DNA of 64,000 nucleotides from Patescibacteria group bacterium (GCA_041660565.1 JBAZWC010000002.1:217836-281835), one strand, 5' to 3'; numbered from the stretch's first letter, positions 1,696 through 57,497 are shown. The notes: generated by a model from the letters alone, not told the origin. Made by a program: numbers and translations.

Positions 1696-2451
1696 ATGAG
1701 AAGTATGGTTGAACATTTAGTACACGCCGGACTAACGTCTTTGCAGGCACGAGTTTATGTTAGTGCGCTTGAGCTTGGTGAGGCTGGTGCAACCGAATTG
1801 GCAGCAAAATCGGGTATTAAGCGTGTTACCGTTTACACCGCACTGAACGATTTGCTTGAAATGAACTTAATTACCTCTGACGATTTCGAAGCGGTGCGAG
1901 TATATAAACCAACTCCTCTTGAGAATCTGGATCAACATTTTATGATGCGAGCCAAAGAAGCAATTCAATCTTATCGTTTAATTCAAAGCTTGTTACCGGA
2001 TCTAAAACAGATCACCAAAGCTACGTTTACCGATCCAACTACCACTTTAATCGAAGGGTCGGTGGCCGTTAAGCAGTATATTGAGAGCGTTTTGCCCAAG
2101 GAGCTTTTGCATTCTGCTTACATTAACGATCAAGCGCACTACGAATTGGTCAAGCCTCTGGCTAAAAAGGCCATCGATTCCGAGTTTCGTCCCAAGGTAA
2201 TTGTGCCTAACTCGGTTAATGCCGATTTAATTGTTTATTTGGATCATCGTGTAGTACCGAATAAAAAAGTCCAATTTCCGGCCACTACTTTGATTTTTCA
2301 ACATCGCGTGGGCACTTTCCTAAGCGAAAATGGGATGATTCAGCTTTATTTGCAAAACGATGACCGCATTGCCGCTCAATACCAAGCTATTTTCGATCTT
2401 GAATGGCGGATTCTCTCCGGGGAACATTTAATTCTGCCTACGGCAGAATAG
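1696..2451 (+). CDS. TrmB-like HTH transcriptional regulator
   Basis: N-terminal winged HTH (LTSLQARVYVSALELGEAGATELAAKSGIKRVTVYTALNDL) resembling TrmB/archaeal-type sugar regulators. SD ctagagggg lies upstream. Confidence 0.4.
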   Translation: MRSMVEHLVHAGLTSLQARVYVSALELGEAGATELAAKSGIKRVTVYTALNDLLEMNLITSDDFEAVRVYKPTPLENLDQHFMMRAKEAIQSYRLIQSLLPDLKQITKATFTDPTTTLIEGSVAVKQYIESVLPKELLHSAYINDQAHYELVKPLAKKAIDSEFRPKVIVPNSVNADLIVYLDHRVVPNKKVQFPATTLIFQHRVGTFLSENGMIQLYLQNDDRIAAQYQAIFDLEWRILSGEHLILPTAE

Positions 2452-2471
2452 AATTTGAATTGCGTCACGAC

Positions 2472-2624
2472 CTGTCATTTCGACTCCCCGATGTTCAAAT
2501 CGGGGGTGGAGAAATCTCAAGAAAAAACTGGAAGGGACTCTTTCTCAGATTTCTCCCTCCGGGCGTAGTCTACGGGCGGAGCCAACGTAGTCGCTCGAGC
2601 CAGCTTCTAGGGTCGAAATGACAG
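2472..2624. repeat. MITE-like palindromic element, family A, copy 1 (termini CCTGTCATTTCGAC ... GTCGAAATGACAG)
   Basis: Inverted termini enclose a conserved inner pair GGAGAAATCT...AGATTTCTCC and the box GGAAGGGA(T/C)TCT. It sits in the trmB-like/polA intergenic region. ORF 2403-2621 is a translation artefact of it. Confidence 0.6.
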
Positions 2625-2675
2625 CTCTACGTGGTGCTCTTTGACTTTTGGTGATCAACTTAGTTTAATGGTGGT

Positions 2676-5270
2676 ATGCAAACACCAAAACCGACTTTAC
2701 TTCTAATTGATGGTAATGCCCTGATTCATCGTGCCTATCACGCGATACCATTAGGCATGAAAACGGCCAGTGGTGAGCTGACAAACGCCATTTATGGGTT
2801 TACTAGCTCGTTAATTACCGCCATCGCCACCGCCAAACCGTCATACGTGGTGGCGTGTTTTGATGTTAAAGGAGACACTTTTCGCCACAAGCAGTATCCG
2901 CAATATAAAGCTCAGCGCAAGCCGATGGAGCAGGAGTTGGTTGACCAAATTCCGCGTATTCACCAAATCGTCGAATCAATGCAAATTCCAATATTGACCC
3001 AAGTAGGCGTAGAAGCAGATGACCTAATCGGCACCATCGCCAAGCAACACGCAAATGGAACTCACGTTTACATCCTCACCGGCGATAAAGACACGCTGCA
3101 GCTACTTGACGACCATATTTCGGTCATCACGCTTGGCTCCGGCATCAATAAGTCCGAAATCATCACTCCCAAAGAACTTGAACACAAAATGGGGTTAACT
3201 CCGGCCGAAATAATCGTTTACAAAGCGTTGCGCGGAGATCCGTCTGATAATATTCCCGGCGTGGCCGGCATTGGTGATGTAACAGCGACCAAGCTGGTTA
3301 CGCATTATCATACCCTGGACAAGATTTACGCCGCGCTGGACGACGAAAATCAGCCGTTGTTGCAGGGTAAAGTGAAGCAGAATTTAATTGATCAAAAAGA
3401 GACAGCGTATTTGTCTGAGGTGCTGGCGACGATTGATACTAATATTAAGATTGATTTTGATTTGGACAAAGCCAAATGGGACGGCCGCGTAACGCCAGAG
3501 ACCGAGAAAATATTTAGCGATTTGCAGTTTCACAGTTTAATGACGCGATTGCGCGGGTTGCGAAGTGGTCATCTCGACACCGCGAGTGAATCGAACGGCG
3601 AGCGACCCCGTCTGGCTCAGATAAAAACGGAATCTCTCACTGCGTTCGAGACGGCAGGTGATAGTGTCGCATTGGTCTTAACCTATGAAGGAGATTCACC
3701 GCGACGCGGTCAAATTACCGGAGTCGCAATCGCCACCAGCGCAGATCAAGCATATATTTTAAAATGGGACGATAAATCAAAGTCGATATTAAATAAAATA
3801 CTGGCATCGGGCGTCGAAATAATTTCTCCAAATATCAAAAATGTCATTTTCTTACTCGAAAACGCCGAGTCGTCACTCAAGCAGCCGTATTTTGACGTAA
3901 ATCTTGCCATCAACCTAACACAAGACGAGGCTAGAATCGATAATGTGAAAACGTTAGAAGACGCCGCTCAAATTGCATGTCAATGTTTTGCTCTAAGAAA
4001 AAATTTGGGTGAAAAAATTGACGAATCTAAAATGACCAAGCTTTGGCAAGAAGTTGAGCTGCCGCTAATTCCGGTTATCGCTAAAATTGAAAACAACGGC
4101 ATATTAGTAGAGCCGCACAAGCTAAACGATTTATCAACTGAATTCACAGCGCAAATTGCCAAAGTGGAGAAAGAGATATGGCACCTGGCCGGCCAAGAGT
4201 TTAACATCGCCTCGCCTAGTCAATTAAGCGATATTCTGTTCAACAAGCTCCAAATTAGCGCTAAGGATGTTAAAAAAAACAAAACGGCGTATTCAACCGA
4301 TGCCGAGACGCTAGAGGTACTCCGGTCGGCGCATCCTGTGGTGGATTTGGTGTTGCGATATCGTGAATTAGCCAAGCTTAAAAACACCTATTTAGACGCG
4401 TTGCCGGCGTTAATTGACCCTAAAGACGGGCGAATTCACACCACCTACAATCAGCTCGGTGCGGCAACCGGCCGATTTTCGTCAACTGATCCGAATTTAC
4501 AGAACATCCCAATTCGATCCGAGTACGGTGATCAAATTCGTCAAGCTTTTGTGGCGGCGCCCAAAACAAAATTAGTTTCGGCCGATTACTCGCAAATTGA
4601 GCTGCGCGTTTTGGCGCATTTGTCTGGCGATCAGAATATGATTTCCGATTTTAATTCCGGTTTGGATATTCACACCGCTACGGCAGCCAAGATTCATCAA
4701 ATTGACCCAAAGTTGGTTACTAGTGAGTTACGACGGGCAGCTAAAACAATCAATTTTGGTATATTATATGGGTTGTCTGCGCATCGCTTGTCCGGCCAAC
4801 TTAGTATTAGCCATGCTGAAGCAAAACAGTTTATCGATCGATATTTTGCGTCCTACCCCGGTATCAAACAGTTTTTGGAAAAAGTAATTGAGCAGTCCAG
4901 GCGAGATGGCTATTACACTACTTTATTTGGACGCCGACGCATTTTCCCCGAGATCAATTCGGGCGCATGGGCGGTACGGGCGGGGGCAGAGCGCATGGCG
5001 ATGAACTTTCCAATGCAGGGCGCGGTGGCTGATATTTTGAAGATGGCGATGATCAAAGCTGGTCACGAATTTGCATTGCACCAAGATCAGATTAAGCCGG
5101 TGTTAACGATTCATGACGAGTTAATTTTTGAAGTAGCCGAGGCCGAAGTTGATTTTGTGGCTAAGAATTTGCCTCAAATTATGACTAGCGTGTGCAAATT
5201 GGATGTTCCGCTGGTAGCAGAGGTTAAAGTGGGTGAAAACTGGGGAAACATGAGCAAATTCGAACAATAG
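2676..5270 (+). CDS. polA: DNA polymerase I
   Basis: 864 aa with a 5'-3' exonuclease N-terminus (LLLIDGNALIHRAYHA), a central 3'-5' exo-like domain and the PolA palm motifs (DYSQIELR, RRAAKTINFGILYG). Confidence 0.9.
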   Translation: MQTPKPTLLLIDGNALIHRAYHAIPLGMKTASGELTNAIYGFTSSLITAIATAKPSYVVACFDVKGDTFRHKQYPQYKAQRKPMEQELVDQIPRIHQIVESMQIPILTQVGVEADDLIGTIAKQHANGTHVYILTGDKDTLQLLDDHISVITLGSGINKSEIITPKELEHKMGLTPAEIIVYKALRGDPSDNIPGVAGIGDVTATKLVTHYHTLDKIYAALDDENQPLLQGKVKQNLIDQKETAYLSEVLATIDTNIKIDFDLDKAKWDGRVTPETEKIFSDLQFHSLMTRLRGLRSGHLDTASESNGERPRLAQIKTESLTAFETAGDSVALVLTYEGDSPRRGQITGVAIATSADQAYILKWDDKSKSILNKILASGVEIISPNIKNVIFLLENAESSLKQPYFDVNLAINLTQDEARIDNVKTLEDAAQIACQCFALRKNLGEKIDESKMTKLWQEVELPLIPVIAKIENNGILVEPHKLNDLSTEFTAQIAKVEKEIWHLAGQEFNIASPSQLSDILFNKLQISAKDVKKNKTAYSTDAETLEVLRSAHPVVDLVLRYRELAKLKNTYLDALPALIDPKDGRIHTTYNQLGAATGRFSSTDPNLQNIPIRSEYGDQIRQAFVAAPKTKLVSADYSQIELRVLAHLSGDQNMISDFNSGLDIHTATAAKIHQIDPKLVTSELRRAAKTINFGILYGLSAHRLSGQLSISHAEAKQFIDRYFASYPGIKQFLEKVIEQSRRDGYYTTLFGRRRIFPEINSGAWAVRAGAERMAMNFPMQGAVADILKMAMIKAGHEFALHQDQIKPVLTIHDELIFEVAEAEVDFVAKNLPQIMTSVCKLDVPLVAEVKVGENWGNMSKFEQ

Positions 5271-5283
5271 AAACTTCCTGTTT

Positions 5284-5445
5284 CTGTCATTTCGACCCTG
5301 CGAGCATTGTCGAGCTGTTGGAGAAATCTTAATTAAGAATTTGAAATTTGAAGTTTGAAATTTGAAATTTTTAATTCTGGAAGGGATTCTATTCAGATTT
5401 CTCCGCCGCGGTCGTGTTGACACACTCCCCGAGTCGAAATGACAG
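5284..5445. repeat. family A element, copy 2 (contains the TTGAAAT heptamer tract 5336-5372)
   Basis: Termini are CTGTCATTTCGACCCTGCGAGCATTGTCGAGCTG at 5284 and GAGTCGAAATGACAGG at 5431-5446. The inner sequence matches copies 1 and 4. It ends 18 nt before the holA ATG. Confidence 0.6.
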
Positions 5446-5463
5446 GTGATAGAGGTAAAATTT

Positions 5464-6405
5464 ATGATTAAAAGCAATATTTATTTATTTTACGGTGAGG
5501 ATAGCGCGGCGATACGGGCTAAATTAAAGCAATGGACCGATAAGCTATCTAAGCAGACAGATTTATTATTAGACAGCATAGACTTAGATGCGTCTGAAGT
5601 TACTTTTGATCAAATTCAGAACGCCGTATCACTAGTGCCGTTGTTTTCCGGGAAAAGATTAGTAGTGGTACGCAACGTTTTTTCAGCGCCCAAAAATGTG
5701 GCCGAGAAAATGACGGCGTACTTGCCTAGTGTGCCAGAATCAACAGTGCTGGTATTAGTCGAAGAGGGCAAAATTGATCCAAAAGACGCTTTGCTTAATC
5801 AGCTTAAAAACAACTATAAGGTGGATTATTTTGCACCGGTTTCGTTGGCCAGCATTAACAAATCCGCTACGCTGATTATTCAAAAATCTGACATCAAAAT
5901 TAACTTTGCCGCCAAGAATTTACTATTAAATCGAATTGGATTAGACAGCTTTCGGTTGGCAAACGAGTTGGAAAAATTGCGTTTGTATGCAAATAGCAAA
6001 GAAATCACCACAGAAATGGTCGAGACGTTGGTGCCGGAAACGCTCGAATCGCGTATTTTTCAACTATCTGATGCTATTATGGGGAATCAAGTAAAAACTG
6101 CGTGTTCGCTTATGCTTAATGAGTTAAGATTTGGTGCTGATCCGTTAAAAATACTAGGGCTATTAATTAGCCTGGTGAGAAAACAACTAATAGTATCTGA
6201 TAATGCCCCGGGGAAGATGTCTGATGCTCAGATAAGTGTCAAAATGAACATCAAACCGTTCGTGATTCAGAAGATGAAAGCGACTGCGCAAAAGACTGGC
6301 CAAGTTAAGCTAATAAACTACTATACGCGGTTGTGTTTGGCAGATATCAACCTAAAACTCGGCCTTGAGGCCGAGCCGGTAATGCTGAATTTATGTAGAA
6401 TTTGA
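5464..6405 (+). CDS. holA: DNA polymerase III delta subunit
   Basis: MIKSNIYLFYGED N-terminus and delta-subunit fold motifs. The ATG at 5464 has SD agaggt 7 nt upstream. The ORF-track start at 5446 reads into the upstream repeat. Confidence 0.7.
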   Translation: MIKSNIYLFYGEDSAAIRAKLKQWTDKLSKQTDLLLDSIDLDASEVTFDQIQNAVSLVPLFSGKRLVVVRNVFSAPKNVAEKMTAYLPSVPESTVLVLVEEGKIDPKDALLNQLKNNYKVDYFAPVSLASINKSATLIIQKSDIKINFAAKNLLLNRIGLDSFRLANELEKLRLYANSKEITTEMVETLVPETLESRIFQLSDAIMGNQVKTACSLMLNELRFGADPLKILGLLISLVRKQLIVSDNAPGKMSDAQISVKMNIKPFVIQKMKATAQKTGQVKLINYYTRLCLADINLKLGLEAEPVMLNLCRI

Positions 6406-6410
6406 GAAGA

Positions 6411-6490
6411 CGGTTAGGGGGCTTAGGGTGATTAGGGGTATTGGGGGAAACCGTTTGTTTTCCCAATCACCCAAATGTCCCTAATTCCCC
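6411..6490. repeat. TTAGGG-rich long palindrome, family C, copy 1 (probable bidirectional terminator holA/rpsT)
   Basis: GGTTAGGGGGCTTAGGGTGATTAGGGGTATTGGGGG ... CCCAATCACCCAAATGTCCCTAATTCCCC. It lies between convergent genes. Confidence 0.55.
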
Positions 6491-6816
6491 TTATTGGTCT
6501 TTTTCTTTTTCGTGGCTGTTTTGGCCTTGGCTGAAACCGCTTTTTTGGTCGGTTTTACGACCGGAGACGTTGCTTTTGAAGCTAATCTTGAGAGTAATCG
6601 GCTAGCGGTGCGGCGATGTAGCAATTTGGTTTTTACCGCTTTGTCTAGCGAGCTTTGGGCCTGAGAAATCGCGTCGGTTGCGCTATCCGGGCTAACCAAC
6701 ACTAACTTGCGCGCCTCTTTTAGGGCACGTTTGTAGGTGTTTTTTAGCACGATGTTTTCGCTGGCACGGCGTTTGGCAACAGATACAGCTTTTTTGGCAG
6801 ATGATGTAATTGGCAT
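6481..6816 (-). CDS. rpsT: 30S ribosomal protein S20
   Basis: The N-terminus SAKKAVSVAKRRASENIVLKNTYKRALKEARK is a canonical S20. There is a Lys/Ala-rich C-terminal tail extension. Confidence 0.9.
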   Translation of the reverse strand: MPITSSAKKAVSVAKRRASENIVLKNTYKRALKEARKLVLVSPDSATDAISQAQSSLDKAVKTKLLHRRTASRLLSRLASKATSPVVKPTKKAVSAKAKTATKKKKTNKGN

Positions 6817-7073
6817 ATCTCAAAATCCTTTTGATGGTTGGTTTAACTAATATATTAACATATAAAATTGTCTTGTGCAAATATTTTATTAGTAATCGTC
6901 CACATTTATGGAAACCCTTCTCCTCACGAGGAGAAGGTGCCCGTAGGGCGGATGAGGAGCTCCTCACCCGGCTTGCAGCCACCCTCTCCTCAGTAAGGAG
7001 AGGGGACAAAGGCTATTGCTCTTTTGTCGCTTTTTTGCTATATTAATCTGTCAGCCAATTTGATAAAGGCAAT

Positions 7074-8225
7074 ATGGAATTAACTCCAAAACAACAAATC
7101 GTCGAGTTAGCAAAAGGGGCAAACAATATCTTAATCGTAACTCATGATCGCCCAGACGGCGATGGTCTTGGTAGTGCGTTGGGGCTTAAGCTGGCTTTAA
7201 CCAAGCTAAACAAATCGGTAACTATTGCTGCTGCAAACCCAGAGCATCAATTACATCATTTTTTACCCGGTATCACCGAAATTCAATCTCAAATTAGCGC
7301 TCACAAAGATCTAATTATCTCTATTGATACCGAGCAGACGCCGGTAAAAAAGGTGATGTATCAAAAATCACCCGATAACCAACTAAATATTATTGTGACG
7401 CCGGATCAAAATATTACTATTGATGCATCGCGTTTAACATTTTCGACCGGCCAATACGCGTGGGATCTGATTATTGCGCTTGACTGCGCCGATATTGAGC
7501 GAATTGGAGACGTTTATACTCAGAATCCGGATATGTTTTTCGATGTGCCGGTGGTAAATATTGACCATCATCCCGGAAATGACCATTGGGGTCGAGTAAA
7601 TTTGGTAGATATGACCGCTACATCCACCTCGGAAATACTGGTTTCGGTGATTGAATCTTTGGGTCGCGAACAGAATTTGCTTGATGAAGACACTGCTACC
7701 TGTTTGCTGTGCGGCATTATTAGCGATACCAACAGTTTTCAGAACAATAATACTACGCCGAAATCGTTTACGGTGGCAGCACAGTTAATTGCGGCCGGCG
7801 CCAGACAGCAAGAAATCATTCATAATCTGTTTCGCACCAAATCTTTGTCAACACTCAAGCTATGGGGAACAATTTTGGCGAATGTGCAAGAAGAAGCTGA
7901 TTTTGTGTGGTCTTACGCTACCGCAACCGAGATTGCGGATGCCGGCGCTGCTCCAGAGCAAACCAGCGGCATTATTGACGAATTGCTCAAGACTACTACC
8001 GGGTCTAGTTTCGCTTTGATGTTATCGGAGCGAGACGGGGGAGTTCATGGCTCGTTGCGCGCGATTAATAAAACGGTTGATGTTTCGGTGATCGCCAATC
8101 TTTTTGGGGGTGGTGGACATGCGGCCGCGGCTGCGTTTGATATTCCAAATACCACGCTTGCGGACAGTCAGGCATTAGTAATCGACAAAGTGAAACAGCT
8201 TCAAGCAGATCGGTCGGGGAAATAG
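7074..8225 (+). CDS. nrnA: DHH/DHHA1 phosphoesterase (NrnA-like oligoribonuclease/pAp phosphatase)
   Basis: DHH motif region ILIVTHDRPDGDGLGS, a DHH at NIDHHPGN, and the DHHA1 motif GGGHAAAAAF. Confidence 0.8.
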   Translation: MELTPKQQIVELAKGANNILIVTHDRPDGDGLGSALGLKLALTKLNKSVTIAAANPEHQLHHFLPGITEIQSQISAHKDLIISIDTEQTPVKKVMYQKSPDNQLNIIVTPDQNITIDASRLTFSTGQYAWDLIIALDCADIERIGDVYTQNPDMFFDVPVVNIDHHPGNDHWGRVNLVDMTATSTSEILVSVIESLGREQNLLDEDTATCLLCGIISDTNSFQNNNTTPKSFTVAAQLIAAGARQQEIIHNLFRTKSLSTLKLWGTILANVQEEADFVWSYATATEIADAGAAPEQTSGIIDELLKTTTGSSFALMLSERDGGVHGSLRAINKTVDVSVIANLFGGGGHAAAAAFDIPNTTLADSQALVIDKVKQLQADRSGK

Positions 8226-8248
8226 GGTGTTGCGGGGAAACCTAAAGC

Positions 8249-8348
8249 AAGAATTTGAAATTTGAAATTTGAAATTTTTAATGGTGGAAGGGATTCTTTC
8301 TTAGATTTCTCCACCCTCGAGACAATGCTCGAGGAGTCGAAATGACAG
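8249..8348. repeat. family A element, copy 4 (right half only)
   Basis: Heptamer tract, then GGAAGGGATTCTTTCTTAGATTTCTCCACCCTCGAGACAATGCTCGAGGAGTCGAAATGACAG. This is nearly the exact reverse complement of the left arm of copy 2. It lies upstream of the rpsO promoter. Confidence 0.55.
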
Positions 8349-8363
8349 TTTATGAGGCTTGTC

Positions 8364-8392
8364 TTGACCAAATCAACTATCAGTGATATAAC
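8364..8392 (+). promoter_or_regulatory. sigma-70-type promoter for rpsO-pnp (TTGACC - 17 nt - TATAAC)
   Basis: The -35 TTGACC is at 8364-8369. A 17-nt spacer follows. The -10 TATAAC is at 8387-8392, about 35 nt upstream of the rpsO ATG. Confidence 0.4.
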
Positions 8393-8428
8393 TAAGCAGT
8401 AGGATAACAAAAGTAATTAAGGATAAAC

Positions 8429-8683
8429 ATGGCAGAGAAGAATCTGATCAAGAAATATCAAACCCACAAAGAAGACACCGGATCAACATCGGTGCAGGTT
8501 GCGGTATTGACCGCTAAAATTAAAGAACTAACCGAGCATTTGCGCGAACATCGCAAAGATTTTGATAGCAGAGTCGGTTTGTTAAAAATGGTGGGCAAAC
8601 GTCGTCGCTTGCTTAATTACATGGCCAAAACCGATTTAGAAGGCTATGAAAAAATCATCGCAGATTTAGGTCTGCGTAAGTAA
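8429..8683 (+). CDS. rpsO: 30S ribosomal protein S15
   Basis: Canonical S15 sequence ([48 protein letters not shown]), with conserved rpsO-pnp synteny. Confidence 0.95.
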
Positions 8684-10962: not shown

Positions 10963-10988
10963 ATAATTGAATTACGATGAGCGTCGTA

Positions 10989-11016
10989 GGGGCGGACTTG
11001 TAAGTCCGCCCTTTTG
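10989..11016 (+). terminator. rho-independent terminator of pnp (GGGGCGGAC-ttgtaa-GTCCGCCC followed by a TTTT run)
   Basis: A perfect 9-bp GC stem and T-run lie 27 nt after the pnp stop. A second hairpin (11028-11060) sits on the other side and serves the convergent minus-strand ORF. Confidence 0.6.
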
Positions 11017-11451: not shown

Positions 11452-12426
11452 TTATTCAGTTTTGTCAACAGGAGGTTCTTCTACTTTTTTATCATGAAAA
11501 GCAGTGTGGATGTCTTTTAAGTGTTGATTTGTTACGTGCGTGTAAATTTGCGTGGTATTCAACGAGGCGTGCCCCAACATCGCTTGAACATCGCGAATGT
11601 TGGCGCCATTCATCAACAAATCGGTGGCAAACGAGTGGCGCAAAGTATGCGGAGTGACAGTTTTAACAATGCCAGCCGCTTTGGCATATCCCTGCACAAT
11701 TCGTTCAATTGATCGGTCAGATAAGCGTAAGCTGCGGTCAAGTTGTTGCTCGGCCTCTGGGATCGGATCTTTTAACCGAATAAACACGGCGTTATCATCG
11801 TCGGTGCGGCTAATTAAATACTGGCGCAGATACTCGGTAGCCACCGCCGACAAAAAAACAATCCGTTCTTTGCGTCCCTTGCCAATCACCGCAAATTCGC
11901 CGCGTTCCAAATTAACCTGATCTCGATTAAGTGATGCAATTTCGGACACTCGCAATCCGGTCGAGAATAAGGTATGCAGCAATGCCAAGTCACGCGCACC
12001 TTTAATCGTTTTGGGGTTAGGCATCTGCAACAATCGCACCAATTCTTCGTGATCCAAAAACTGAATCTGGCGCGAGTCGTTCGCCGGTAAATCAATCTTC
12101 TCTGCTGCCATCGCCACCACATTTTTGCGATTTAAATAGCGCAAAAGTGATCGCAGCGCAATTAAATGATAGTTTTGAGTTGATTTTGACAGCGGTTCGT
12201 CTTTTTGATTTTTGAGACGATTCAAATACTGGCGAAATCGCAGCACCAAATCATCGGTAATTTGATCAACCGAGGTAACGTTTTGCTCTTCTGCCCAAGC
12301 GTTAAATCGGTTTAAATAATGCGAATAGCTCTCGATCGTGTGTAATGATCGATTTTTTTCAAGCTCCAAATGCTGCATAAAAGCATCAGTTGCGTCGGAT
12401 AATGTCATAAAAAAAGTATAACACAA
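11452..12426 (-). CDS. xerC: tyrosine site-specific recombinase XerC/XerD family
   Basis: N-terminal SAM-like domain and C-terminal catalytic motifs (R..HTLRHSFATDLL..GANIRDVQAMLGHASLNTTQIYTHV). Confidence 0.85.
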   Translation of the reverse strand: MCYTFFMTLSDATDAFMQHLELEKNRSLHTIESYSHYLNRFNAWAEEQNVTSVDQITDDLVLRFRQYLNRLKNQKDEPLSKSTQNYHLIALRSLLRYLNRKNVVAMAAEKIDLPANDSRQIQFLDHEELVRLLQMPNPKTIKGARDLALLHTLFSTGLRVSEIASLNRDQVNLERGEFAVIGKGRKERIVFLSAVATEYLRQYLISRTDDDNAVFIRLKDPIPEAEQQLDRSLRLSDRSIERIVQGYAKAAGIVKTVTPHTLRHSFATDLLMNGANIRDVQAMLGHASLNTTQIYTHVTNQHLKDIHTAFHDKKVEEPPVDKTE

Positions 12427-12439
12427 AGAGACGAATTTT

Positions 12440-12610
12440 AAATTTTCAATTTTTAATTAGATGCTTAGCATCGAAATCACTCGCGGTACGCTCGAGATTA
12501 TCAAATGAAAGGTAGCCAATTTTAAATGACTAAATAAGGAGCCGCCTTTTTAAAATTTAATCATTCGGTACTTATTCATTTAAAATTTAGCCTTTAAAAT
12601 TTAAAATTTT
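12440..12610. repeat. intergenic repeat, family B, copy 1 (about 170 bp)
   Basis: Near-identical to 18738-18910 and, in its 3' 125 bp, to 25185-25312. It starts with (TTTTAAT)n, has an internal imperfect inverted repeat TTTAAATGACTAAATAAGGA...CTTATTCATTTAAA, and ends TTTAGCCTTTAAAATTTAAAATT. Confidence 0.7.
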
Positions 12611-15788: not shown

Positions 15789-16634
15789 ATGGCTGATGAA
15801 AATACCACCACAACTCAAAATCTTGATCCGGATGATTATCTACTGGAGCTAGAAACAGATCCGGAAAGCGACTGCTATAAGCTTATTCAAGATCAAAAAT
15901 ACGATCAAATAATGCCGGTGCTGGCACCGCTACCGTTAAAAGTGCAAATTAGGGTTTGCGAGCTGTTGCGCGAAACGTTTATCGATCAAATGCGCCACCT
16001 GATCAACTCTACTCCAGCCGATATCTACCAAAAAATTACCGCTACTATTACTAAGACGAGTGGTGATGATCAGGCAAAACTGGCTCAAATTCGCGACCAC
16101 TATTTTGTGACAATTAGTATGTTGATGACCTTAAAAGCGCCGAGCACACAAAAACGTTTGGTCAAAATTGCCGCTCAAAAATATAACGCAGACACCTCTT
16201 ATCGTCAGATTGACATCGAACAACAGTTGGCCGAAACCATGTTGCGCGCGTTGCCAAATATTGCCGAGACAGAAACAGATTACATTCAAAAAATCGCCGA
16301 ATTTACCGGGGTCGAAATGAGCGATCAGCCGTTTACCGATTTTGTTTCTAAAGCGGTTGATGCGCTTTATTACATCGCTTTGCTAGACGATTTATTGTTG
16401 CTGAAAATTGGAACGCAGACCGGTGATGATAAGATCGACTTGACGGTGTTGCAATCACAGGGAGTGATTGAGTTCGTACGTATGGTGATGATGTTGCGTG
16501 ATCCGTTTTTGCAGGCGTTGTATAGCGAATCTGAGCTGAATACATCAGTTGCTGCGATGCCCGAAATTTCACCCGAGACGGTGAAGCAGACTCCAGCGCC
16601 CGAAACTGAAACAACTAATTATGATATCGTGTAA
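15789..16634 (+). CDS. acidic cytoplasmic hypothetical protein (operon partner of the VirB6-like and PrgI-like genes)
   Basis: The start lies 3 nt after the upstream stop. There are no TM segments and no recognisable domain. Confidence 0.45.
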   Translation: MADENTTTTQNLDPDDYLLELETDPESDCYKLIQDQKYDQIMPVLAPLPLKVQIRVCELLRETFIDQMRHLINSTPADIYQKITATITKTSGDDQAKLAQIRDHYFVTISMLMTLKAPSTQKRLVKIAAQKYNADTSYRQIDIEQQLAETMLRALPNIAETETDYIQKIAEFTGVEMSDQPFTDFVSKAVDALYYIALLDDLLLLKIGTQTGDDKIDLTVLQSQGVIEFVRMVMMLRDPFLQALYSESELNTSVAAMPEISPETVKQTPAPETETTNYDIV

Positions 16635-16645
16635 TTAGAGGAAAT

Positions 16646-17131
16646 ATGCAATACAAAGTGCCGCAAAATATCGATAAAGAGGACGAAATCGTTGGCCCGC
16701 TAACGCTGGTTCAATTTAGCTATTTGGCCATCGCCTTTGCCATTGACTTTTTGGCATTCAAATCTTTGCCATTGGCACTAAGTTTGATCATCATTCTGCC
16801 TCTTTCGGTATTGGCTTTTGCTTTGGCATTTTTGAAGATTCAAGATCGGCCGATGCTGACATTTTTGATGGCGGTGCTGCATTTTTCTCGTGATGATAAA
16901 GCCAGAGTGTGGAGTAAAACATCTGACCGCCCCATTTTGCAGATCGACAAAACGGTAGCGCCGGTGGTAGCTACCGATGCTACACAGCACAAACAGTTCG
17001 ATTCTGCTAAAGCCGAAGCACTGGCCAATGTCATTGACGCACGCGGTCAAGCCCCAGCACCTGCCACGCCCGAGCCGACTAAGATGCCGTTTACAAATGT
17101 AGATCAAAACATCTTGAAAAAGAACGATTAG
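16646..17131 (+). CDS. PrgI-family (VirB3-like) small membrane protein
   Basis: 161 aa. The N-terminus MQYKVPQNIDKEDEIVGPLTLVQFSYLAIAFAIDFLAF, followed by two TM helices, is typical of PrgI-family proteins from Gram-positive/CPR T4SS loci. Confidence 0.5.
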   Translation: MQYKVPQNIDKEDEIVGPLTLVQFSYLAIAFAIDFLAFKSLPLALSLIIILPLSVLAFALAFLKIQDRPMLTFLMAVLHFSRDDKARVWSKTSDRPILQIDKTVAPVVATDATQHKQFDSAKAEALANVIDARGQAPAPATPEPTKMPFTNVDQNILKKND

Positions 17132-17244
17132 GGTCATTGGGGTAGTTAGGGCAGTTGAATCCCCCTAACCGTACCTACCGCCTGACAGTCTCTCAAACAA
17201 TCTTGGCAAAGGGTTTGGCGTTTGTTACGCTACCAAAGTAAAGG

Positions 17245-17823
17245 ATGTGGGCAAGCGTGTTTTCGACTATCGACAGCCAGATTGTGCTGGCATTAAATCA
17301 TTTAGCCCTCACAAACGACTTGACCAAATTCGTCGTCGTTTTTTGTTCGAACGGTTTAATTGCGATTGTGGTCTCGGTGGCTATTATGTATTTTTTATTT
17401 AATTTTCCGCTTTCAGCCGGTCAGCGAGTCCGCCCGATTATCGGATACGCCGCAGTCAGCATTTTGCTGGCGATGGCGGCGGGCTACATCATCGAGACAT
17501 TTATTGGTCGCGCCCGCCCATTTGCGTTGCTAAGTGATATTTCGGTTATTGGATCAATCCCCAAAAACACCTCTATGCCCAGTTTGCATACGTTGGCTGC
17601 ATTTGCCTTTGCCGGTGCGTTTATTTTTTGGCGACCAAAGGTAAATCATGCATGGTGGTTAATTGCCGCCGCCACTTTGGTGGGATTATCGCGTATTGCG
17701 GCCGGTTTGCATTACCCAACCGACGTGTTAGTTGGAGCGGCCATTGGCATCACCTGCGCTTATCTGGTAGTATACGAAGGATCCCCGGTGTTTAGATGGC
17801 TTTCTAGAGGACAGCAAAGATAA
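17245..17823 (+). CDS. PAP2-family phosphatase (PgpB-like, membrane)
   Basis: Polytopic membrane protein with PAP2 motifs (SMPSLHT...SRIAAGLHYPTDVLVGAAIG). Confidence 0.7.
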   Translation: MWASVFSTIDSQIVLALNHLALTNDLTKFVVVFCSNGLIAIVVSVAIMYFLFNFPLSAGQRVRPIIGYAAVSILLAMAAGYIIETFIGRARPFALLSDISVIGSIPKNTSMPSLHTLAAFAFAGAFIFWRPKVNHAWWLIAAATLVGLSRIAAGLHYPTDVLVGAAIGITCAYLVVYEGSPVFRWLSRGQQR

Positions 17824-17932
17824 TTTGAAATTCGAAATTTGAAATTTTTAAACATTTGGGAATTTTTTATTTTAAATTCGGATCTTGTTCATTTCAAATT
17901 GTAAATTTTATATTTCAAATTCTGGAGGTACC

Positions 17933-18724
17933 GTGTCTTATTTACAAGCAATCGTTTTAGGATTAGTACAAGGATTAGGTGAGTTTTTGCCTATTTCCAG
18001 CTCGGCTCACCTGGTATTGGTCCCGTATATTTTTGGCTGGACCGCACACACGGATATTTTTGATGTAGCTTTGCACTTGGGCACGCTTTTAGCGGTGGTG
18101 ATCTTTTTTGCCAAAGACATTTGGCGTTTGCTTAAAGCCGGTTTAACTCAGGGCATCAAAACTGTTGATGGCAAGCTATTCTGGCTGATTATGGTGGCTA
18201 CCGTGCCAGCCGGATTGATTGGCTATCAATTTGAAGGCTTTGTTGACGATAAGTTGCGTACCGCTTACTTGGCCATTGCACTGGCGATGGCAATTATGGG
18301 TGTTGTACTATGGCTTGTCGATAAATATGCATCCAAAAAACTGGATGAAAATAAACTAACGTGGGGACAATCAATTTTAATTGGTGTTTCGCAGGCGCTT
18401 GCGTTGTTACCAGGTGTGTCTCGATCTGGTGCCACTATGACCACCGGTTTATTGTTTGGTCTAACCCGAGAATCGGCTGCCCGTTTTTCATTTTTGATGT
18501 CGGTGCCCATTATTGCCGGCGCCGGATTACTTAAATTAACTAAATTGCATGCATCAGACGTTGATGGGCAATTTATCGTTGGAGTGGTTGTGGCGGCAGT
18601 AGTTGGCTATCTAAGCATTCGCTGGTTATTAAATTATTTGAACAAAGGTCGTTTTGATATTTTTGCTTGGTATCGGTTTGGCTTTGCCGCACTTGTGATC
18701 ATCCTTCTTGTCGTCAGACGGTAA
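17933..18724 (+). CDS. uppP: undecaprenyl-diphosphate phosphatase
   Basis: The BacA/UppP N-terminus is LQAIVLGLVQGLGEFLPISSSAHL. A GTG start at 17933 has SD GGAGG 6 nt upstream. The ORF-track start at 17885 is over-extended. Confidence 0.9.
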   Translation: MSYLQAIVLGLVQGLGEFLPISSSAHLVLVPYIFGWTAHTDIFDVALHLGTLLAVVIFFAKDIWRLLKAGLTQGIKTVDGKLFWLIMVATVPAGLIGYQFEGFVDDKLRTAYLAIALAMAIMGVVLWLVDKYASKKLDENKLTWGQSILIGVSQALALLPGVSRSGATMTTGLLFGLTRESAARFSFLMSVPIIAGAGLLKLTKLHASDVDGQFIVGVVVAAVVGYLSIRWLLNYLNKGRFDIFAWYRFGFAALVIILLVVRR

Positions 18725-18737
18725 CCAAGGGTATAAT

Positions 18738-18910
18738 TTCAAATTTTTAATTTTTAATTAGATGTTTAGCATCGAAATCACTCGCGGAACGCTCGAGATT
18801 ATCAAATGAAAAGTTGCCAATTTCTAAATGACTAAATAAAGAACCATTTAAAATTTAATCATTCGGTACTTATTCATTTAAAATTTAGCCTTTAAAATTT
18901 AAAATTCAAA
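18738..18910. repeat. family B, copy 2
   Basis: More than 90% identical to copy 1 by eye. It lies between uppP and dedA. Confidence 0.7.
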
Positions 18911-19530: not shown

Positions 19531-19713
19531 TCTGATTGGATAAATTGGATTTTTTGGTGTGTGGAATTTTTTTGTCATATAGATTCCGGGTCGAGCCCGG
19601 AATGACAAACTCCAAAAACCAGTTGACGTGCTCTTATTTATATGACATACTGCGGCTAACACTCGGGGTACACTCAAGCGCCCCACTGACAACAGAATCC
19701 GGAGGGTGGAACG

Positions 19714-21469: not shown

Positions 21470-21547
21470 CCAATTAATCCAATTAGATTTTATTATATAG
21501 ATTCCAAAGTCGAGCCCGGAATGACAAAAAAATATAAGGAGCAGAAT

Positions 21548-22141
21548 ATGCAACATCCAAAAGAAGAGCGAACGGTCGTTTTAGTAAAGCCCGATGGGGT
21601 TATGCGCGGTTTGGTGGGCGAGGTTTTAACTCGTTTTGAAAAACGCGGTTTGAAGATTTTAGGTTTGAAAATGGTATATCCGTCTCGTGAACACGCTGCG
21701 GCACACTATTCGGGCTCCGAAGAGTGGTTGCGTGGGATGGGCAATAAGACGCTTGAGGCGTTTGCCAAATATGGCATAGACGTAACTGCAGAAATGGGCA
21801 CTGCCGACGCATTGGAAATTGGTAAAAAGGTGCAGCAATGGAACGTTGACTACTTGGCAATGGGTCCGGTAGTGGCAATCGTTCTGCAGGGTATGCACGC
21901 TATCACCACCGTGCGCAAAATTGTGGGAAGTACTTTGCCGGTGTTAGCCGATCCTGGTACCATCAGGGGCGATTTTTCGGTTGATTCAAATGTTGCCGGC
22001 AATTTTGATAAGCGCGCGATTCACAATATCGTTCACGCCTCTGGTGATCCATCCGAAGCCGGGCACGAAATTGCGCACTGGTTCAAAGAGGAAGAACTAA
22101 TTAAATATTCTCGCGCCGACGAACAGATAATGTTTGGATAA
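21548..22141 (+). CDS. ndk: nucleoside diphosphate kinase (with an internal insertion of about 30 aa)
   Basis: VVLVKPDGVMRGLVGEVLTRFEKRGLKI and the NIVHASGDPSEAGHEIAHWF active-site region. The ATG at 21548 has SD AAGGAG upstream. The ORF-track start at 21521 is over-extended. Confidence 0.9.
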   Translation: MQHPKEERTVVLVKPDGVMRGLVGEVLTRFEKRGLKILGLKMVYPSREHAAAHYSGSEEWLRGMGNKTLEAFAKYGIDVTAEMGTADALEIGKKVQQWNVDYLAMGPVVAIVLQGMHAITTVRKIVGSTLPVLADPGTIRGDFSVDSNVAGNFDKRAIHNIVHASGDPSEAGHEIAHWFKEEELIKYSRADEQIMFG

Positions 22142-23271: not shown

Positions 23272-23439
23272 CTGTCATCTCGACCCTGTGAGCGTTGTCG
23301 AACTGTTGGCTTCCTGCCCTCTTAGGGCGTAAGCCCGGAGGGAGAGATCCCGCCAGTAGCTAGATCAATACGGGATTTCTCCATCAAGCGGGCGGACATA
23401 TGAGTCCGCCCCTACACCAAGAGATTGTCGAAATGACAA
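23272..23439. repeat. family A element, copy 3 (GC-rich interior)
   Basis: Termini are CCTGTCATCTCGACCCTGTGAGCGTTGTCGAACTG and GTCGAAATGACAA. The interior retains GGAGAGATCCC...GGGATTTCTCC and carries a GGGCGGAC-atatga-GTCCGCCC hairpin. Confidence 0.55.
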
Positions 23440-24671: not shown

Positions 24672-25178
24672 ATGTTAGACATTCATTTTGATGGACAGCA
24701 AAAGGACGAAGAAGTGGTGGCGATGTTTCATCGTAGTATTTGGGTTTATTTTAAGTGGATCGTAGCTATTATCATCTGCCTGATGTTCTCAATTGTTGTA
24801 CTGATTTTAAGTAATTTCCATACTCCGGGATTGTATATCGCCGGTTTGCTATTTTTTGCTGTGGTTTATCTGATTGTTCGGACATGGTACATTTGGTCGA
24901 ACAATTTATTCATCGTTACTAATATGCGGGTGATTGGTCTGGTGCAAAACAGTGTTTTTGAGCGTCAGCTAAAAGAATCTTACCTTGATAGTATTTGTCA
25001 GGTGACGGCGGTGGTTAAGGGTGTGATGCCGAATATGTTTGGCTATGGGCAAGTGCTGGTGCAAACAGAGGAAGTGATGATTTTGGAAGGAATAGAGACG
25101 CCGTTTGATGCCAAACATGCTATTTTTATGGCTATTGATCAATCAAAAAGAGCTAACCCGAATCTTAAAAGAGACTAG
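24672..25178 (+). CDS. membrane protein with a bacterial PH-like (bPH/YdbT-like) domain
   Basis: Two TM helices precede a domain resembling bPH_2 (VTNMRVIGLVQNSVFERQLKESYLDSI). Confidence 0.4.
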   Translation: MLDIHFDGQQKDEEVVAMFHRSIWVYFKWIVAIIICLMFSIVVLILSNFHTPGLYIAGLLFFAVVYLIVRTWYIWSNNLFIVTNMRVIGLVQNSVFERQLKESYLDSICQVTAVVKGVMPNMFGYGQVLVQTEEVMILEGIETPFDAKHAIFMAIDQSKRANPNLKRD

Positions 25179-25184
25179 GAAACG

Positions 25185-25312
25185 AATTTTTAATTTTTAA
25201 TTTTTAATTTCAAATGAAAGGAAGCCAATTTTTAAATGACTAAATAAGGAACCATTTAAAATTTAATCATTCGGTACTTATTCATTTAAAATTTAGCCTT
25301 TAAAATTTATAA
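25185..25312. repeat. family B, copy 3 (lacks the roughly 45-bp GCATCGAAATCACTCGCGG...GAGATTATC module)
   Basis: It abuts the dnaE stop codon and is convergent with the bPH-membrane gene. Confidence 0.65.
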
Positions 25313-28300
25313 TTATCTAACCTCGGTCTGGTGTGGGCCAACTAATCGCGCAATTTGATCTAACAAGCTGAAGTCAATTTTTACTGTCAGCCTTGGTTTA
25401 ATTTCTTTTTGGTCCGGTAGATGCAAGATGAAGGCATTTACGCCGTTATGTAGTGACAAAACGTGTTTTAGCTCGGACAAAGTTTTGGTACTGGTGTCTT
25501 CGGGAATGGTGATATGCAAAATAGCGGATTCGGGAAACATCTGCACCGGTTTTTCACTCGCTCCGGTTGTGGGTGCTGCGGCGCGTCCGTTTTGGCTTTT
25601 GCCGTTACCGTTTTTATATGACGTAAGTGCGGGCAAATCTATACCATCCACTGACCGCGCCTCGGTGATATCCCACGCCGCGTTGACTAAAATTTTTAAG
25701 CTGCCATCTTTATCGTTCACCTTGCCATCTGCCACTATAATGCGGTCATTTTGCCATAAATCCTTGGTTTCGGCATATAAATTGGGGAAGATGATTAGCT
25801 CAATATTGGTAGTAGCGTCTTCCACTTTCACAAACGCCATTGCTTGGTTGGATTTGGTGATAATCGATTTGACACTGGTGATCATACCGATAATGCGCAC
25901 CGATTTATCTACCATATTTTGTTTAATTTCACCGATTTTAATGATGTCGTGCCCCGAAATTGAGTTCAAATCTGACATTGGGTGCTCTGAAAGGTAAATG
26001 CCAAGCAGGTCTTTTTCCCATTGCATAATTTGTTGTTTGGTGGCGGGAGCGGTTGGGGTTAAATTAAGCAAAACCATCTCTTCGTTTTCGTCTGAGCCAA
26101 ACAACCCAATTTGGCTGTGATGATCTTTGTGAATACCGGTGGCGTACTTTAGAATTGCTTCGATATTAACAAACAAGGTGTTTCGGTCTGAAAAACTATC
26201 CAAAGCGCCCGCTTGCGTCAAGCTCTCCAATGTTTTTCGGTTGATTACTTTTCCATCAGTCCTTTTGATAAAATCAGTCAAACTAGTAAACAAACCATTT
26301 TTTTTGCGCTCTTTGACGATCACCTCTGCCACGCCGTGCCCCACATTCTTAATTGCTCCTAGCCCAAACCGAATATTCTCGTTTTTATGTTGATCGTTCG
26401 GGACTACGCCAAAATCCGGAAAAGACTCGTTGATGTCCGGAGGCAGCACCTTAATGCCCATTCGATTGCACTCGTTTAGGGCGAACGATACTTTTTCAAT
26501 GTCACGGCTTTGCTCCGAGGTTAGCCATGCCGCCATAAACTGGCTGGGATAGTGCATTTTAAGATACGCGGTTTGGTACGCAATCATCCCGTAAGAGGTG
26601 GCGTGCGCTTTATTAAATCCGTAACGGGCGAACGGCTCTACGAAGTCGAATAGCTTTTCGGCCAAGCTTTTGGTGATGCCGTTTTGCACCCCTTTTTCAA
26701 TCCATTTATGCCGCTGTTCCAATAATAATTCTTTGATTTTTTTACCAATCGCTTTGCGCAGAACATCGGCTTCGCCGTATGAAAATCCGCACAAATCGCG
26801 AGCAATGCGCAAAATTTGTTCCTGATAAACGGCAATACCGTATGTTTCTTTTAGAATTGGCTCGAGCTTGGGATGAAGATAGGTGACTTTTTTGGTGCCA
26901 TGTTTGCCGGCAATATAATCTGGAATTAATTCGATTGGTCCGGGACGATATAGCGCCACCATCGCAATAATATCGTTGATGACGGTTGGTTTTAGCTCTT
27001 TTAAGTACCGTTTCATCCCATCTGACTCTAATTGGAACACCCCAGACGACTCGCCGCGAGAAAGCAGCTGGTACGTTTCTTTGTCATCAAGCGGTATTTC
27101 GGCGGTAATTATATCAACATCTCGAGTGGCTTTGATGATCTCCAGCGCCCGCTCAATGATGGACAGGTTGGCTAGACCCAAGAAGTCCATTTTAACCAAA
27201 CCAACTGCCTCTAACTCTTTCATGGCAAATTGAGTCACGATGCCAGACTGCTCTTTATCGCCGATACGTTGCACCGGTACATAGTTGGTGATGTCTTTGT
27301 CCGAGATAACTACGCCAGCGGCGTGCACCGAGGCGTGGCGAGCCACTCCTTCTACCTTGCCCGCCAGATCAATCAGCTTTTTAATTGCGGGCTCGTTGTT
27401 GTAGCGATATTTTAACTCAACGTTGGTTTCTAGCGCGATATCCAGTGTTGACCCGAGCGGGATCAGTTTAGAAACCGCATCTACTTCGCCATACGGCATG
27501 CCCAAAACTCGCCCCACGTCGCGGATGCTGTTTTTGGCTGCAATCGTACCAAAGGTAATAATCTGTGCCACCTTGTCGGCGCCGTATTTTTCGGTGACGT
27601 ATGCGATTAATTCGCCGCGTCTGGTATCGGCGATATCCAAGTCAACATCTGGCCAGTCAATACGTTCTTGGTTTAGAAATCGTTCAAAGATTAGACCGTA
27701 CTTTAACGGATCGATGTCGGTAATGTTGATTAAATACGAGACTAATGAGCCAGCGGCTGATCCACGAGTGTTGGTAAAAATGCCCATTTCCTTGGCTTTG
27801 TTGTTGTAGTCTGCCACCATCAGCATATAGCTGGCAAAGCCGGTTTTGCCGATGACATCAAGCTCATATTCAAGTCGGGTTTTGTACTCTTCATCTAAAT
27901 TGGACGGGTATTCCGAGCGTTCGCTGGGTTGATTAGTCTTGACCACTTTAGCCCATAATCCGGCAATACATCTCTCGCGCAGATAATCATCCGGTTTTGC
28001 CCCACCCGGTATTGGAAACGCCGGAAAGATATATTGACCGGTCTTGATTTCGAATTGGCACATATCGGCAATTTTGCGGGTGTTTGATATTGCCTCTGGC
28101 AAATCTGCAAAATTGGCGGACATTTCATCACTCGTTAGCATTGATATATCAATGTAGCGACCATCTTGTTTCATTGACATTCGATTTTGATCTGCCATAA
28201 ACTTGCCGGTTTGAATACACAGCAATGCATCTTGCGCCTCGGCATCATCATGCTCTAAATAATGGACATCATTTGTGGCCACTAGCCCGAGCTGGTGTTT

Positions 28301-28892: not shown

Positions 28893-28985
28893 AGGTTTCT
28901 TTCGTTCGGGGGATTAGGGACATTAGGGAAGTTGGGGATTTTGGGAGTGCCTTTGGCTCCCCCAATGCCCCTAATCACCCCAATC
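28893..28985. repeat. family C, copy 3 (between divergent dnaE and the methyltransferase gene)
   Basis: GGGGGATTAGGGACATTAGGGAAGTTGGGGATTTTGGGAG...CTCCCCCAATGCCCCTAATCACCCCAATCTCCCTAAT. Confidence 0.55.
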
Positions 28986-29013
28986 TCCCTAATTTGTGTT
29001 ATAATTATTCATA

Positions 29014-34967: not shown

Positions 34968-35100
34968 TTCCTAGATTATACCACAGATTTGTTAATAATC
35001 CGTAGGGGCGGACCTATGTGTCCGCCCGCATAGTATTGTTTATTGTAGAGTTTTGTGGTATAACAACACTGCAAGCACTCTACGTTTCAGGAGACAGTCC

Positions 35101-35784: not shown

Positions 35785-35804
35785 GCGTGTGGGCGCCGGC
35801 ACAA

Positions 35805-35839
35805 AACGGCTCGGATGCAGTGCATTCCGAGCCGTTTTT
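35805..35839 (+). terminator. rho-independent terminator of paralog A (identical copy at 36618-36653 after paralog B)
   Basis: AACGGCTCGGATGCAGTGCATTCCGAGCCGTT followed by TTTT. A 32-45 bp identical segment is duplicated after both paralogs. Confidence 0.65.
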
Positions 35840-35958
35840 CATTTAGTTACGTGAAATTTCTTCATTATCATATTCGATTTAGGTGTTACGTATTGAATAT
35901 TATTTATTTTTATGGTATAAAATAGTTTGCATGCACACTACGCTTCGGGAGGCTGTCC

Positions 35959-36594: not shown

Positions 36595-36732
36595 GGCGTC
36601 ACGTGGACGCCGACACAAAACGGCTCGGATGCAGTGCATTCCGAGCCGTTATTCATTTTATAGTCGAATTGGCTTGCCATTCCGAAGCCTTCTTGACCTT
36701 CCGTAGCTTTGGCGAAGGAGGTGGCGAAGGAT

Positions 36733-36807
36733 GGCTGGGGAGGAAGGATTCGAACCTTCGATCTTCTGCTCCAGAGGCAGACGCCGTACCGCTTGGCCAC
36801 TCCCCAA
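36733..36807 (-). tRNA. tRNA-Gln (anticodon CTG), CCA encoded
   Basis: Reverse complement: UGGGGAG-UG-GCCAAGCGGUA...UCUGC-CUCUGGA-GCAGA...GGUUCGAAUCC...CUCCCCA-G-CCA. Cloverleaf with a 7-bp acceptor stem, anticodon CUG and a T-loop GGTTCGAATCC. Confidence 0.8.
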
Positions 36808-36915
36808 TAATGCTATTATTATACTCAAAATGCGTCATATTTGCAATATTTAATATAAAATATGCCCCACGGTGTTGGTTGCCGTGGGGCTAGTGTGTGA
36901 GTGATGTACGCTGCG

Positions 36916-47375: not shown

Positions 47376-47470
47376 ACCAAAAACGGTTAGGGAGATTAGG
47401 GACTTTAGGGATTTTGGGAGACCATCGGTTATCCCAACCGCCCTAATCACCCTAAAACCCCTAACCGTCT
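47376..47470. repeat. family C, copy 4 (between convergent clpC-like and response regulator genes)
   Basis: CGGTTAGGGAGATTAGGGACTTTAGGGATTTTGGGAG ... TCCCAACCGCCCTAATCACCCTAAAACCCCTAACCG. Confidence 0.55.
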
Positions 47471-47483
47471 TTAGAATTTTGGC

Positions 47484-57446: not shown

Positions 57447-57497
57447 AAATAGTATAACAATAGAAATTACAAATCACAATTTTTAATTTTTAACCTT

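Follow-up and report, generated by a model that had tools for sequence, protein, structure and literature searches.

Outward-facing hairpin dimers in spacers of a Patescibacteria genome as candidate target sites of a GIY-YIG single-strand nuclease family

What kind of element stands between polA and holA in a Patescibacteria metagenome-assembled genome (MAG), and what are the similar elements found in other spacers of the same contig? The repeat lies at positions 5284–5445 of a 64-kb stretch of DNA, hereafter the window, whose HolA is MFA6082488.1. The initial annotation had described it as one of four MITE-like elements, here called Family A, with inverted termini, an inner inverted pair, a box and heptamer tracts, all in one orientation just 5′ of gene starts. 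The family is indeed multi-copy, free of ORFs and bounded by inverted ends, and the three full copies (copies 1, 2 and 3, at 2472–2624, 5284–5445 and 23272–23439) carry CTGTCATTTCGAC at their termini. In a scan of the window, CTGTCATTTCGAC had two exact plus-strand matches (2472 and 5284), three exact minus-strand matches (2624, 5445 and 8348) and a one-mismatch match at either end of copy 3 (23272, plus; 23439, minus); allowing up to two mismatches gave nine matches against 1.5 expected, a number that 0 of 100 shuffled sequences reached. The inner pair GGAGAAATCT/AGATTTCTCC was recovered in copies 1 and 2 and in the half copy (copy 4, annotated at 8249–8348), but has changed to an altered form in copy 3. 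Likewise, the box GGAAGGGAYTCT, which had been taken as common to all four, has three exact occurrences (2530, 5379 and 8286, versus 0.3 expected), in copies 1, 2 and 4, and none in copy 3. When the four copies were aligned, their ends were conserved and copies 1, 2 and 4 had a common spacer segment, while the interior of copy 3 differed, in line with the divergence of interiors that had been reported.

The termini had been read as terminal inverted repeats (TIRs) enclosing an internal repeat, but the 'terminus' and the 'inner repeat' are better read as the two arms of a single hairpin unit. Written on its own strand, the unit runs TGTC-ATTTC-GA-C-(variable hairpin)-G-GA-GAAAT-C, and its parts are an unpaired TGTC tag, a 5-bp basal stem beginning with A-T and T-A, a tandem G·A/A·G closed by C-G, a freely variable distal hairpin (the insert measures 23–55 nt and differs from unit to unit) and a C directly 3′ of the stem. 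Within a copy, the top strand carries the left unit and the bottom strand the right one, which places the tags outward (head-out, 'HH'). Given this build of two units on opposite strands, the 13-bp 'TIRs' and the GGAGAAATCT pair are the 5′ and 3′ arms of the units.

A detector for such units ([CT]GTCA[TC] tag, a 5-nt arm and the complement of that arm within 80 nt, with a following C also demanded in the window scan) returned 11 units in the window versus 1.3 in shuffled sequence. These were seven Family A units (three dimers and one survivor), three short singletons and one match at 53177 that was rejected as probably due to chance; a further candidate at 29242 was rejected because it lies inside a coding region. 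The TGTC tag is present in all seven Family A units and all three short units. The arms are ATTTC/GAAAT in six Family A units and ATCTC/GAGAT in the left unit of copy 3, where the 3′ arm has an A-to-G change that compensates for a T-to-C change in its 5′ partner and the MFE fold pairs ATCTC with GAGAT. As the right unit of the same copy has ATTTC/GAAAT, complementarity is held within the unit and not between the ends of the element. All ten credible window units end in AT-C, and their tails read CTC, CTT, CTG, CTA or CCC, so that the C is constant and the rest varies.

In copy 1, the left unit (2472–2518, plus strand) consists of a CTGTC tag, ATTTC, GA, C, a CCCCGAT/ATCGGGG hairpin, G, GA, GAAAT and the tail CTC. 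It is followed by a spacer (2519–2545) that holds the lineage-specific box as GGAAGGGACTCT at 2530–2541 and by a right unit (2546–2624, minus strand; TGTCATTTCGAC...GGGAGAAATCTG) with a long distal insert of about 55 nt. Copy 2, the element between polA and holA, has a left unit (5284–5330, plus) starting 13 nt past the polA stop, a spacer (5331–5393) with an A/T-rich TTGAAAT tract at 5337–5376 and the box as GGAAGGGATTCT at 5379–5390, and a right unit (5394–5445, minus) that ends, as first noted, 18 nt before the holA ATG at 5464. Copy 3 combines a left unit of another type (23272–23351, plus; TGTCATCTCGAC...GGGAGAGATCC) with a right unit (23372–23439, minus; TTGTCATTTCGAC...GGAGAAATCC) whose distal part is a GC-rich hairpin. 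The half copy does end at 8348, and its right unit survives (8302–8348, minus), 80 nt upstream of the rpsO ATG. However, it is not a simple half: the part to its left (8233–8301) contains an A/T tract at 8251–8283, the box at 8286–8297 and a degenerate left inner arm, GGGGAAACCT, at 8234–8243, and the retention of this arm marks copy 4 as a decayed dimer. Family A is thus represented by three HH dimers, with spacers of 31, 67 and 24 nt, and one decayed dimer. The short singletons lie at 19582–19607 (minus; TGTCATTCCGGG-CTCGA-CCCGGAATCTA, with an 8-bp stem, a 5-nt loop and a DNA fold z-score of −4.7), 21500–21526 (minus; three G·T pairs) and 63840–63865 (plus; TGTCATTCCGGA-CTAGA-TCCGGAATCTA).

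The placement of the copies needs a similar adjustment. They are near gene starts, but they are just as near to the upstream stop codons (13–20 nt for copies 1 and 2). A common orientation can be defined for copies 1, 2 and 4, but not for copy 3, whose left unit is of a different type. The over-extended ORF calls attributed to the repeats were found at 23400, at 5446 and on the minus strand at 5121–5477. A repeat end can also give rise to a start codon or extend one: the mraY-like ORF called from 23400 has an in-frame ATG at 23433, within copy 3, and the terminal ATGACA of the singleton at 21500–21526 provides the ATG of an ORF called at 21521–22141.

Two features of the spacers behave differently. 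Outside the window, the box GGAAGGGAYTCT occurred among 208 fetched loci only in a contig of the same genome (L202) and as a single match in one other locus (L028). Since the box is, apart from that match, specific to this genome, its presence in three copies suggests that whole dimers have been copied within the lineage. The TTGAAAT tracts, regarded at first as a component of the family, are present in copies 2 and 4 and missing from the other copies, and similar A/T-rich heptamer-periodic tracts (TTTGAAA/TTTTAAA) occur in spacers without Family A at 12433, 17822–17921, 18734 and 25184, at 57463, and in the empty polA-holA spacer of a relative (L205:6743–6876). The A/T-rich tracts are general spacer features of this genome and its relatives and no defining part of the element. 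They are found in many spacers with or without Family A and may represent native promoter-region or curved DNA.

Several other repeats were seen in the window. A separate intergenic family of approximately 100–185 nt, with copies 89–94% identical, occupies 12423–12608, 18724–18906 and 25174–25314; it has an A/T-rich AATTTT-type tract at its start and contains CGAAATCACTCGCGGTACGCTCGAGATTATCA. TTAGGG-like heptamer tracts (TTAGGGN) and their reverse complements, at 6407–6490, 17128–17161, 28905–28992 and 47387–47471, form long hairpins, for example between the convergent holA and rpsT. The GC-rich hairpin GGGGCGGAC-N6-GTCCGCCC is present at three sites (10986–11016, 23388–23415 and 35002–35029), one of which is the distal insert of the copy 3 right unit and another of which resembles a terminator stem after pnp. 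Two 56-nt copies of a terminator-like hairpin, AAAACGGCTCGGA...TCCGAGCCGTTTT, are 95% identical and lie near tRNA-Gln (35789–35844 and 36603–36658), and the region 36000–38000 has a raised G+C content (0.57 versus approximately 0.45).

Evidence that the basal stem is a real structure comes from other genomes. In 80 loci chosen without reference to the repeat and representing approximately ten arm types, the complement of a unit's own arm was found downstream of the tag in 42% of 806 tag occurrences, compared with 7.8% when arms were swapped. The three variable stem bases differ across lineages (TTC, TCC, TCT, CTC, CCT, CCC, TGC, GTC and others) and their complements covary, and 99 of 173 dimers are heterotypic. 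Among 736 distinct units, 413 have the tandem G·A/A·G at stem positions 6–7 and 543 are Watson-Crick at position 8, and approximately 574 of the 736 have CTN or CCN tails, counting the listed tail types. In contrast, the basal ATTTC/GAAAT stem was not recovered when isolated Family A units were folded as single-stranded DNA (ssDNA) with a nearest-neighbour model, and weak z-scores were obtained for several of them; support for this stem is comparative, through covariation, and not energetic.

The termini recur far beyond this genome. A scan of species-representative genomes with the pattern CTGTCATTTCGAC-N15-45-GGAGAAATCT returned at least 120 loci in at least 12 phyla, compared with about 0.5 expected by chance on our own estimate. 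The matches listed include the isolates Mucilaginibacter oryzae, Flavobacterium suzhouense, Bifidobacterium panos and Desulfobulbus sp., and MAGs of the Bacteroidota, Bacillota, Planctomycetota, Chloroflexota, Actinomycetota, Spirochaetota, Desulfobacterota, Verrucomicrobiota, Acidobacteriota, Pseudomonadota and several CPR lineages. Across these phyla the basal module TGTC-ATNNN-GA-C...G-GA-N′N′N′AT-C is retained nearly letter for letter, while the distal hairpin varies. With such a cross-phylum spread, Family A is not a lineage-specific transposon or MITE.

At two of the loci derived from this pattern (L084 and L100), a small ORF between the left and right units encodes a GIY-YIG protein (PF01541, E approximately 1e-16), which is single-domain, approximately 95 aa long and nearest, among solved structures, to UPF0213 proteins of unknown function. 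The association was also recovered from the opposite direction: when metagenomes were searched with nothing but the GIY-YIG protein, 583 loci were confirmed and 80 of them retained, and a correctly oriented unit was present within approximately 130–150 nt on the left flank in 55/77 (71%) and on the right flank in 56/77 (73%). Units were found on both flanks at 39/74 loci (53%) and on at least one at 67/74, against a background in the same loci of approximately 2% per comparable stretch. Exact Family A-type units bracket the nuclease gene in four loci (L201, L167, L084 and L100). Nuclease similarity follows arm type weakly but significantly (59.4% versus 56.7% identity; 0 of 300 permutations reached this). 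The window copies would then be the ORF-less form of the unit-gene-unit arrangement seen in these other genomes. A search with an Ssn-like protein for a CPR copy of the nuclease returned only Smithella/Syntrophales relatives.

Some loci from other genomes also carry 'stutter' arrays, in which the tag, the 5′ arm and a few further bases are repeated three to nine times in tandem with a period of 17–30 nt. These lie outside a complete unit, on its outer flank, and in many cases occur to either side of the nuclease gene (39 runs in 27/208 loci, 35 of the 39 ending in a complete unit; for example L100:1266–1440, L009:6843–6960, L060, L101, L129, L135 and L183), and might be traces of repeated cleavage upstream of the tag with subsequent repair. 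They are not discussed in the main text of the paper that describes the nuclease family (PMC11893778).

Two bodies of published work bear on the identity of the unit. Di Nocera et al. (2013; PMC3733652) defined a superfamily of CGTC-tagged REPs, which takes in dRS3 of Neisseria and RPE-4 and RPE-6 of Rickettsia. Its members have a CGTC, TGTC or CCTC tag, a stem that starts with A-T and T-A, and a 3-nt tail with consensus CCA; they occur mostly as HH dimers with the tags outside, with spacers of 20–100 bp that are often conserved and with heterodimers common, and are located between same-strand or convergent genes. No associated enzyme was reported at that time (PMC3733652). Family A shares the unpaired tag, the A-T/T-A start, the short tail, the HH dimers with 20–100 bp and often conserved spacers, the frequent heterodimers and the placement between same-strand or convergent genes. 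However, the described REPs have uninterrupted stems of 8–9 bp, loops of 4–5 nt and a CCA tail (PMC3733652), whereas Family A has 5 bp, G·A/A·G, C-G, a 23–55 nt insert and a CTN tail; in the window only the three short singletons fit the published description.

The second is the work of Chenal et al. (2025; PMC11893778) on single-domain GIY-YIG Ssn proteins (cd10448), which bind their NTS/SRM targets as ssDNA only and in the tag orientation only, bind no RNA and make their cut a few nucleotides upstream. Binding depends critically on the C that follows the palindrome, and cutting on the three nucleotides upstream, while the loop is dispensable and can be extended (PMC11893778). In the published survey, 71% of ssn homologs had at least one flanking SRM and 42% had SRMs on both sides, and the system reduces the transformation of N. 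meningitidis by DNA that contains NTS; Patescibacteria are not mentioned (PMC11893778). The link between GIY-YIG genes and repeats was thus already known, and our association statistics independently reproduce the published ones. Like NTS/SRM, Family A has an HGTC tag 5′ of a hairpin, an A-T/T-A stem start and a C directly 3′, and its type is multi-copy, intergenic, inverted around an approximately 95-aa GIY-YIG gene and free to vary in the loop. The two differ in that NTS has a contiguous 8-bp stem and a 4–5 nt loop, compared with the 5-bp stem, tandem G·A and 23–55 nt distal hairpin of Family A, and in the tail, which is CYR in NTS/SRM and CTN in Family A. The published SRM pattern, HGTCWYN(0-2)YYVSBRHN(0-5)WNVSBRGN(0-2)RNCYNB, which expects a contiguous stem and a loop of 0–5 nt, found 0 matches in the window (0.23 in shuffles) and one match in each of two syntenic relatives (L203 and L205), both to TCCC-type units. 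Family A therefore appears to be a structurally distinct variant, in a CPR genome, that escapes the pattern of the recently characterised system.

Other tagged or inverted repeats are less close. The REPIN-RAYT system (Bertels and Rainey 2011; PMC3116915) works alike, with tagged hairpins as inverted doublets, singletons as decayed doublets, a small nuclease gene lying between its own repeats, recognition of ssDNA hairpins and no target-site duplication. However, it has a GTAG tag and a Y1 HUH transposase, compared with a TGTC tag and, in other genomes, a GIY-YIG partner, and Family A is not a member. Correia elements, which are MITEs of Neisseria, resemble Family A in being 150–170 bp long, intergenic, bounded by inverted ends and foldable as one long hairpin. 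Unlike Family A, however, Correia elements and other MITEs have IS-like TIRs and target-site duplications; Family A consists instead of two autonomous hairpin units. We consider it likely that the Family A copies are HH dimers of CGTC/TGTC-REP units, equivalent to hairpins of the NTS/SRM type, and candidate target sites of Ssn nucleases.

An alternative is that the copies are cis-regulatory, as the initial annotation proposed in suggesting that they may donate promoter or UP elements or form 5′ UTR structures, or that they serve as mRNA-stabilising or processing hairpins between co-transcribed genes. All copies do lie between same-strand genes, near starts and stops, the terminal ATGACA resembles a −35 hexamer, and REP-type repeats are known to affect mRNA stability (PMC3733652). 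Folding the elements, as had been proposed, gave strong whole-dimer RNA folds (z-scores of −4.5 to −6.2), as would any inverted repeat. Against this, two relatives in which the closest HolA homologs (42–44% identity) are found have contigs (L203 and L205) syntenic with the window, with FemAB, a Mur ligase, TrmB, polA, holA and rpsT followed by DHH, rpsO, pnp and xerC, and their orthologous spacers are empty or hold other unit types. The TrmB-polA spacer is occupied in the window and empty in both relatives; between polA and holA the window has Family A, L203 has a dimer built from different unit types and L205 has no unit; the DHH-rpsO spacer of the window contains a unit, while that of L203 is empty; and the spacer after pnp is empty in the window but contains a Family A unit (16407–16449) in L203. 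Occupancy is thus gained and lost on a conserved gene backbone, and the copies are not conserved leaders, the alternative that had been raised for them.

Other observations also speak against a role in expression. Promoter-like sites are not enriched around the copies (8 found versus 10.7 expected), which weighs against promoter or UP-element donation. On our reading of the sequence, polA and rpsO have promoter-like hexamers of their own downstream of the elements; for rpsO this is TTGACC-17-TATAAC, and copy 4 lies upstream of it as had been stated. None of the 11 terminator-like sites listed for 2300–8500 falls inside a Family A element, and no element gave a match to Rfam covariance models at gathering or permissive thresholds (only two tRNAs reached the gathering score, and the elements had nothing with E < 1). 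At the level of RNA, the tandem G·A is favourable on the tag strand only, so that one transcript cannot carry both units of a dimer in the favoured form; G·T is not in excess over A·C in an asymmetry test for RNA-level selection; and Ssn binds no RNA (PMC11893778). A primary cis-regulatory function is in our judgement improbable.

No greater probability is given to the reading that the units arrived with an Ssn cassette by descent or transfer and are now inert, decaying relics of a nuclease since lost, although some of the evidence would suit it. Neither the 64-kb window nor the relatives' syntenic fragments contain an ssn/GIY-YIG gene. Copy 4 is decayed, copy 3 is divergent, and approximately 19% of SRM-rich genomes have no ssn homolog (PMC11893778). 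However, five termini are still exact 13-mers, and three copies contain the lineage-specific spacer box, suggesting recent copying within the lineage. Furthermore, a unit at L203 16407–16449, a non-orthologous site, is identical to the left unit of copy 1 at 41/43 positions, and is kept in a relative whose HolA is only 44% identical; inert relics therefore seem unlikely.

Least probable is the original proposal of a classical MITE, a deletion derivative of a DDE-type IS moved in trans through 13-bp TIRs: the inverted ends, small size, several copies, absence of an ORF and interiors diverging as in old MITEs would fit, but no target-site duplication was seen at the window copies on our reading or in 171 dimers from other genomes (0–1 matches for k = 4–8 versus at most 0.7 expected), which argues against a DDE-type MITE and fits hairpin-based elements, the left and right units are often of different types and each internally complementary, solo units exist, the ORF between such ends elsewhere encodes a 95-aa GIY-YIG nuclease and no transposase, and at least 12 phyla have the 23 specified bases conserved in the same form. 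We know of no IS family that keeps its ends conserved across at least 12 phyla in this way. The inverted repeat did not extend beyond the ends of the elements, and a literature search with the literal element sequence returned only primer noise.

Under the preferred reading, as dimers of Ssn-type target units, the copies would be inert in duplex DNA. When the tag strand becomes single-stranded, as during competence uptake, replication or repair, the unit would fold and, by analogy with the published Ssn enzymes, be bound at its stem and 3′ C by a cognate Ssn, which would make its cut a few nucleotides 5′ of the tag. The tandem G·A, favourable on the tag strand alone, would be an indirect sign of such strand specificity. 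As an HH dimer presents one unit per strand, whichever strand is exposed would receive a single cut, on the dimer's outer side. No ssn gene lies in the window, so both the presence of a cognate Ssn in this genome and cleavage of the long-loop Family A form are inferred. The repeats themselves may behave as selfish or domesticated DNA that spreads and decays in intergenic spacers, with any effect on neighbouring genes being secondary. Patescibacteria depend on DNA uptake. A more specific possibility, advanced only tentatively, is that Family A defines a 'G·A-platform, expanded-loop' class of Ssn targets and that HH dimers around core genes such as polA provide sites at which ssDNA of either strand is cut, so that the recombination of incoming DNA is limited or shaped.

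The same repeats have practical consequences for sequence data. Two Logan contigs of the same organism (L001 and L202, from SRR18595301) end inside Family A, at window positions of approximately 2576 and 8319, and many ssn-bearing contigs in public data are only approximately 1 kb long, consistent with repeats that break assemblies. For annotation, the repeats explain over-extended ORF calls, assembly breaks and spurious peptide tails.

For the nuclease family, the modular build, with a basal stem plus G·A and a free distal hairpin, fits the tolerance of Ssn for loop extension, and such units may offer natural substrates for mapping specificity. Among ssn loci found without using the repeat, CT-tailed units numbered 59 and CC-tailed units 50, indicating that the class missed by the SRM pattern is large, perhaps roughly half of the units flanking ssn homologs in metagenomes. 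The published pattern misses a large cross-phylum class, including all copies in this CPR genome, and surveys that rely on it would undercount these targets. What had appeared to be a mystery MITE thereby gains a defined identity, as the predicted target site of a site-specific ssDNA nuclease family.
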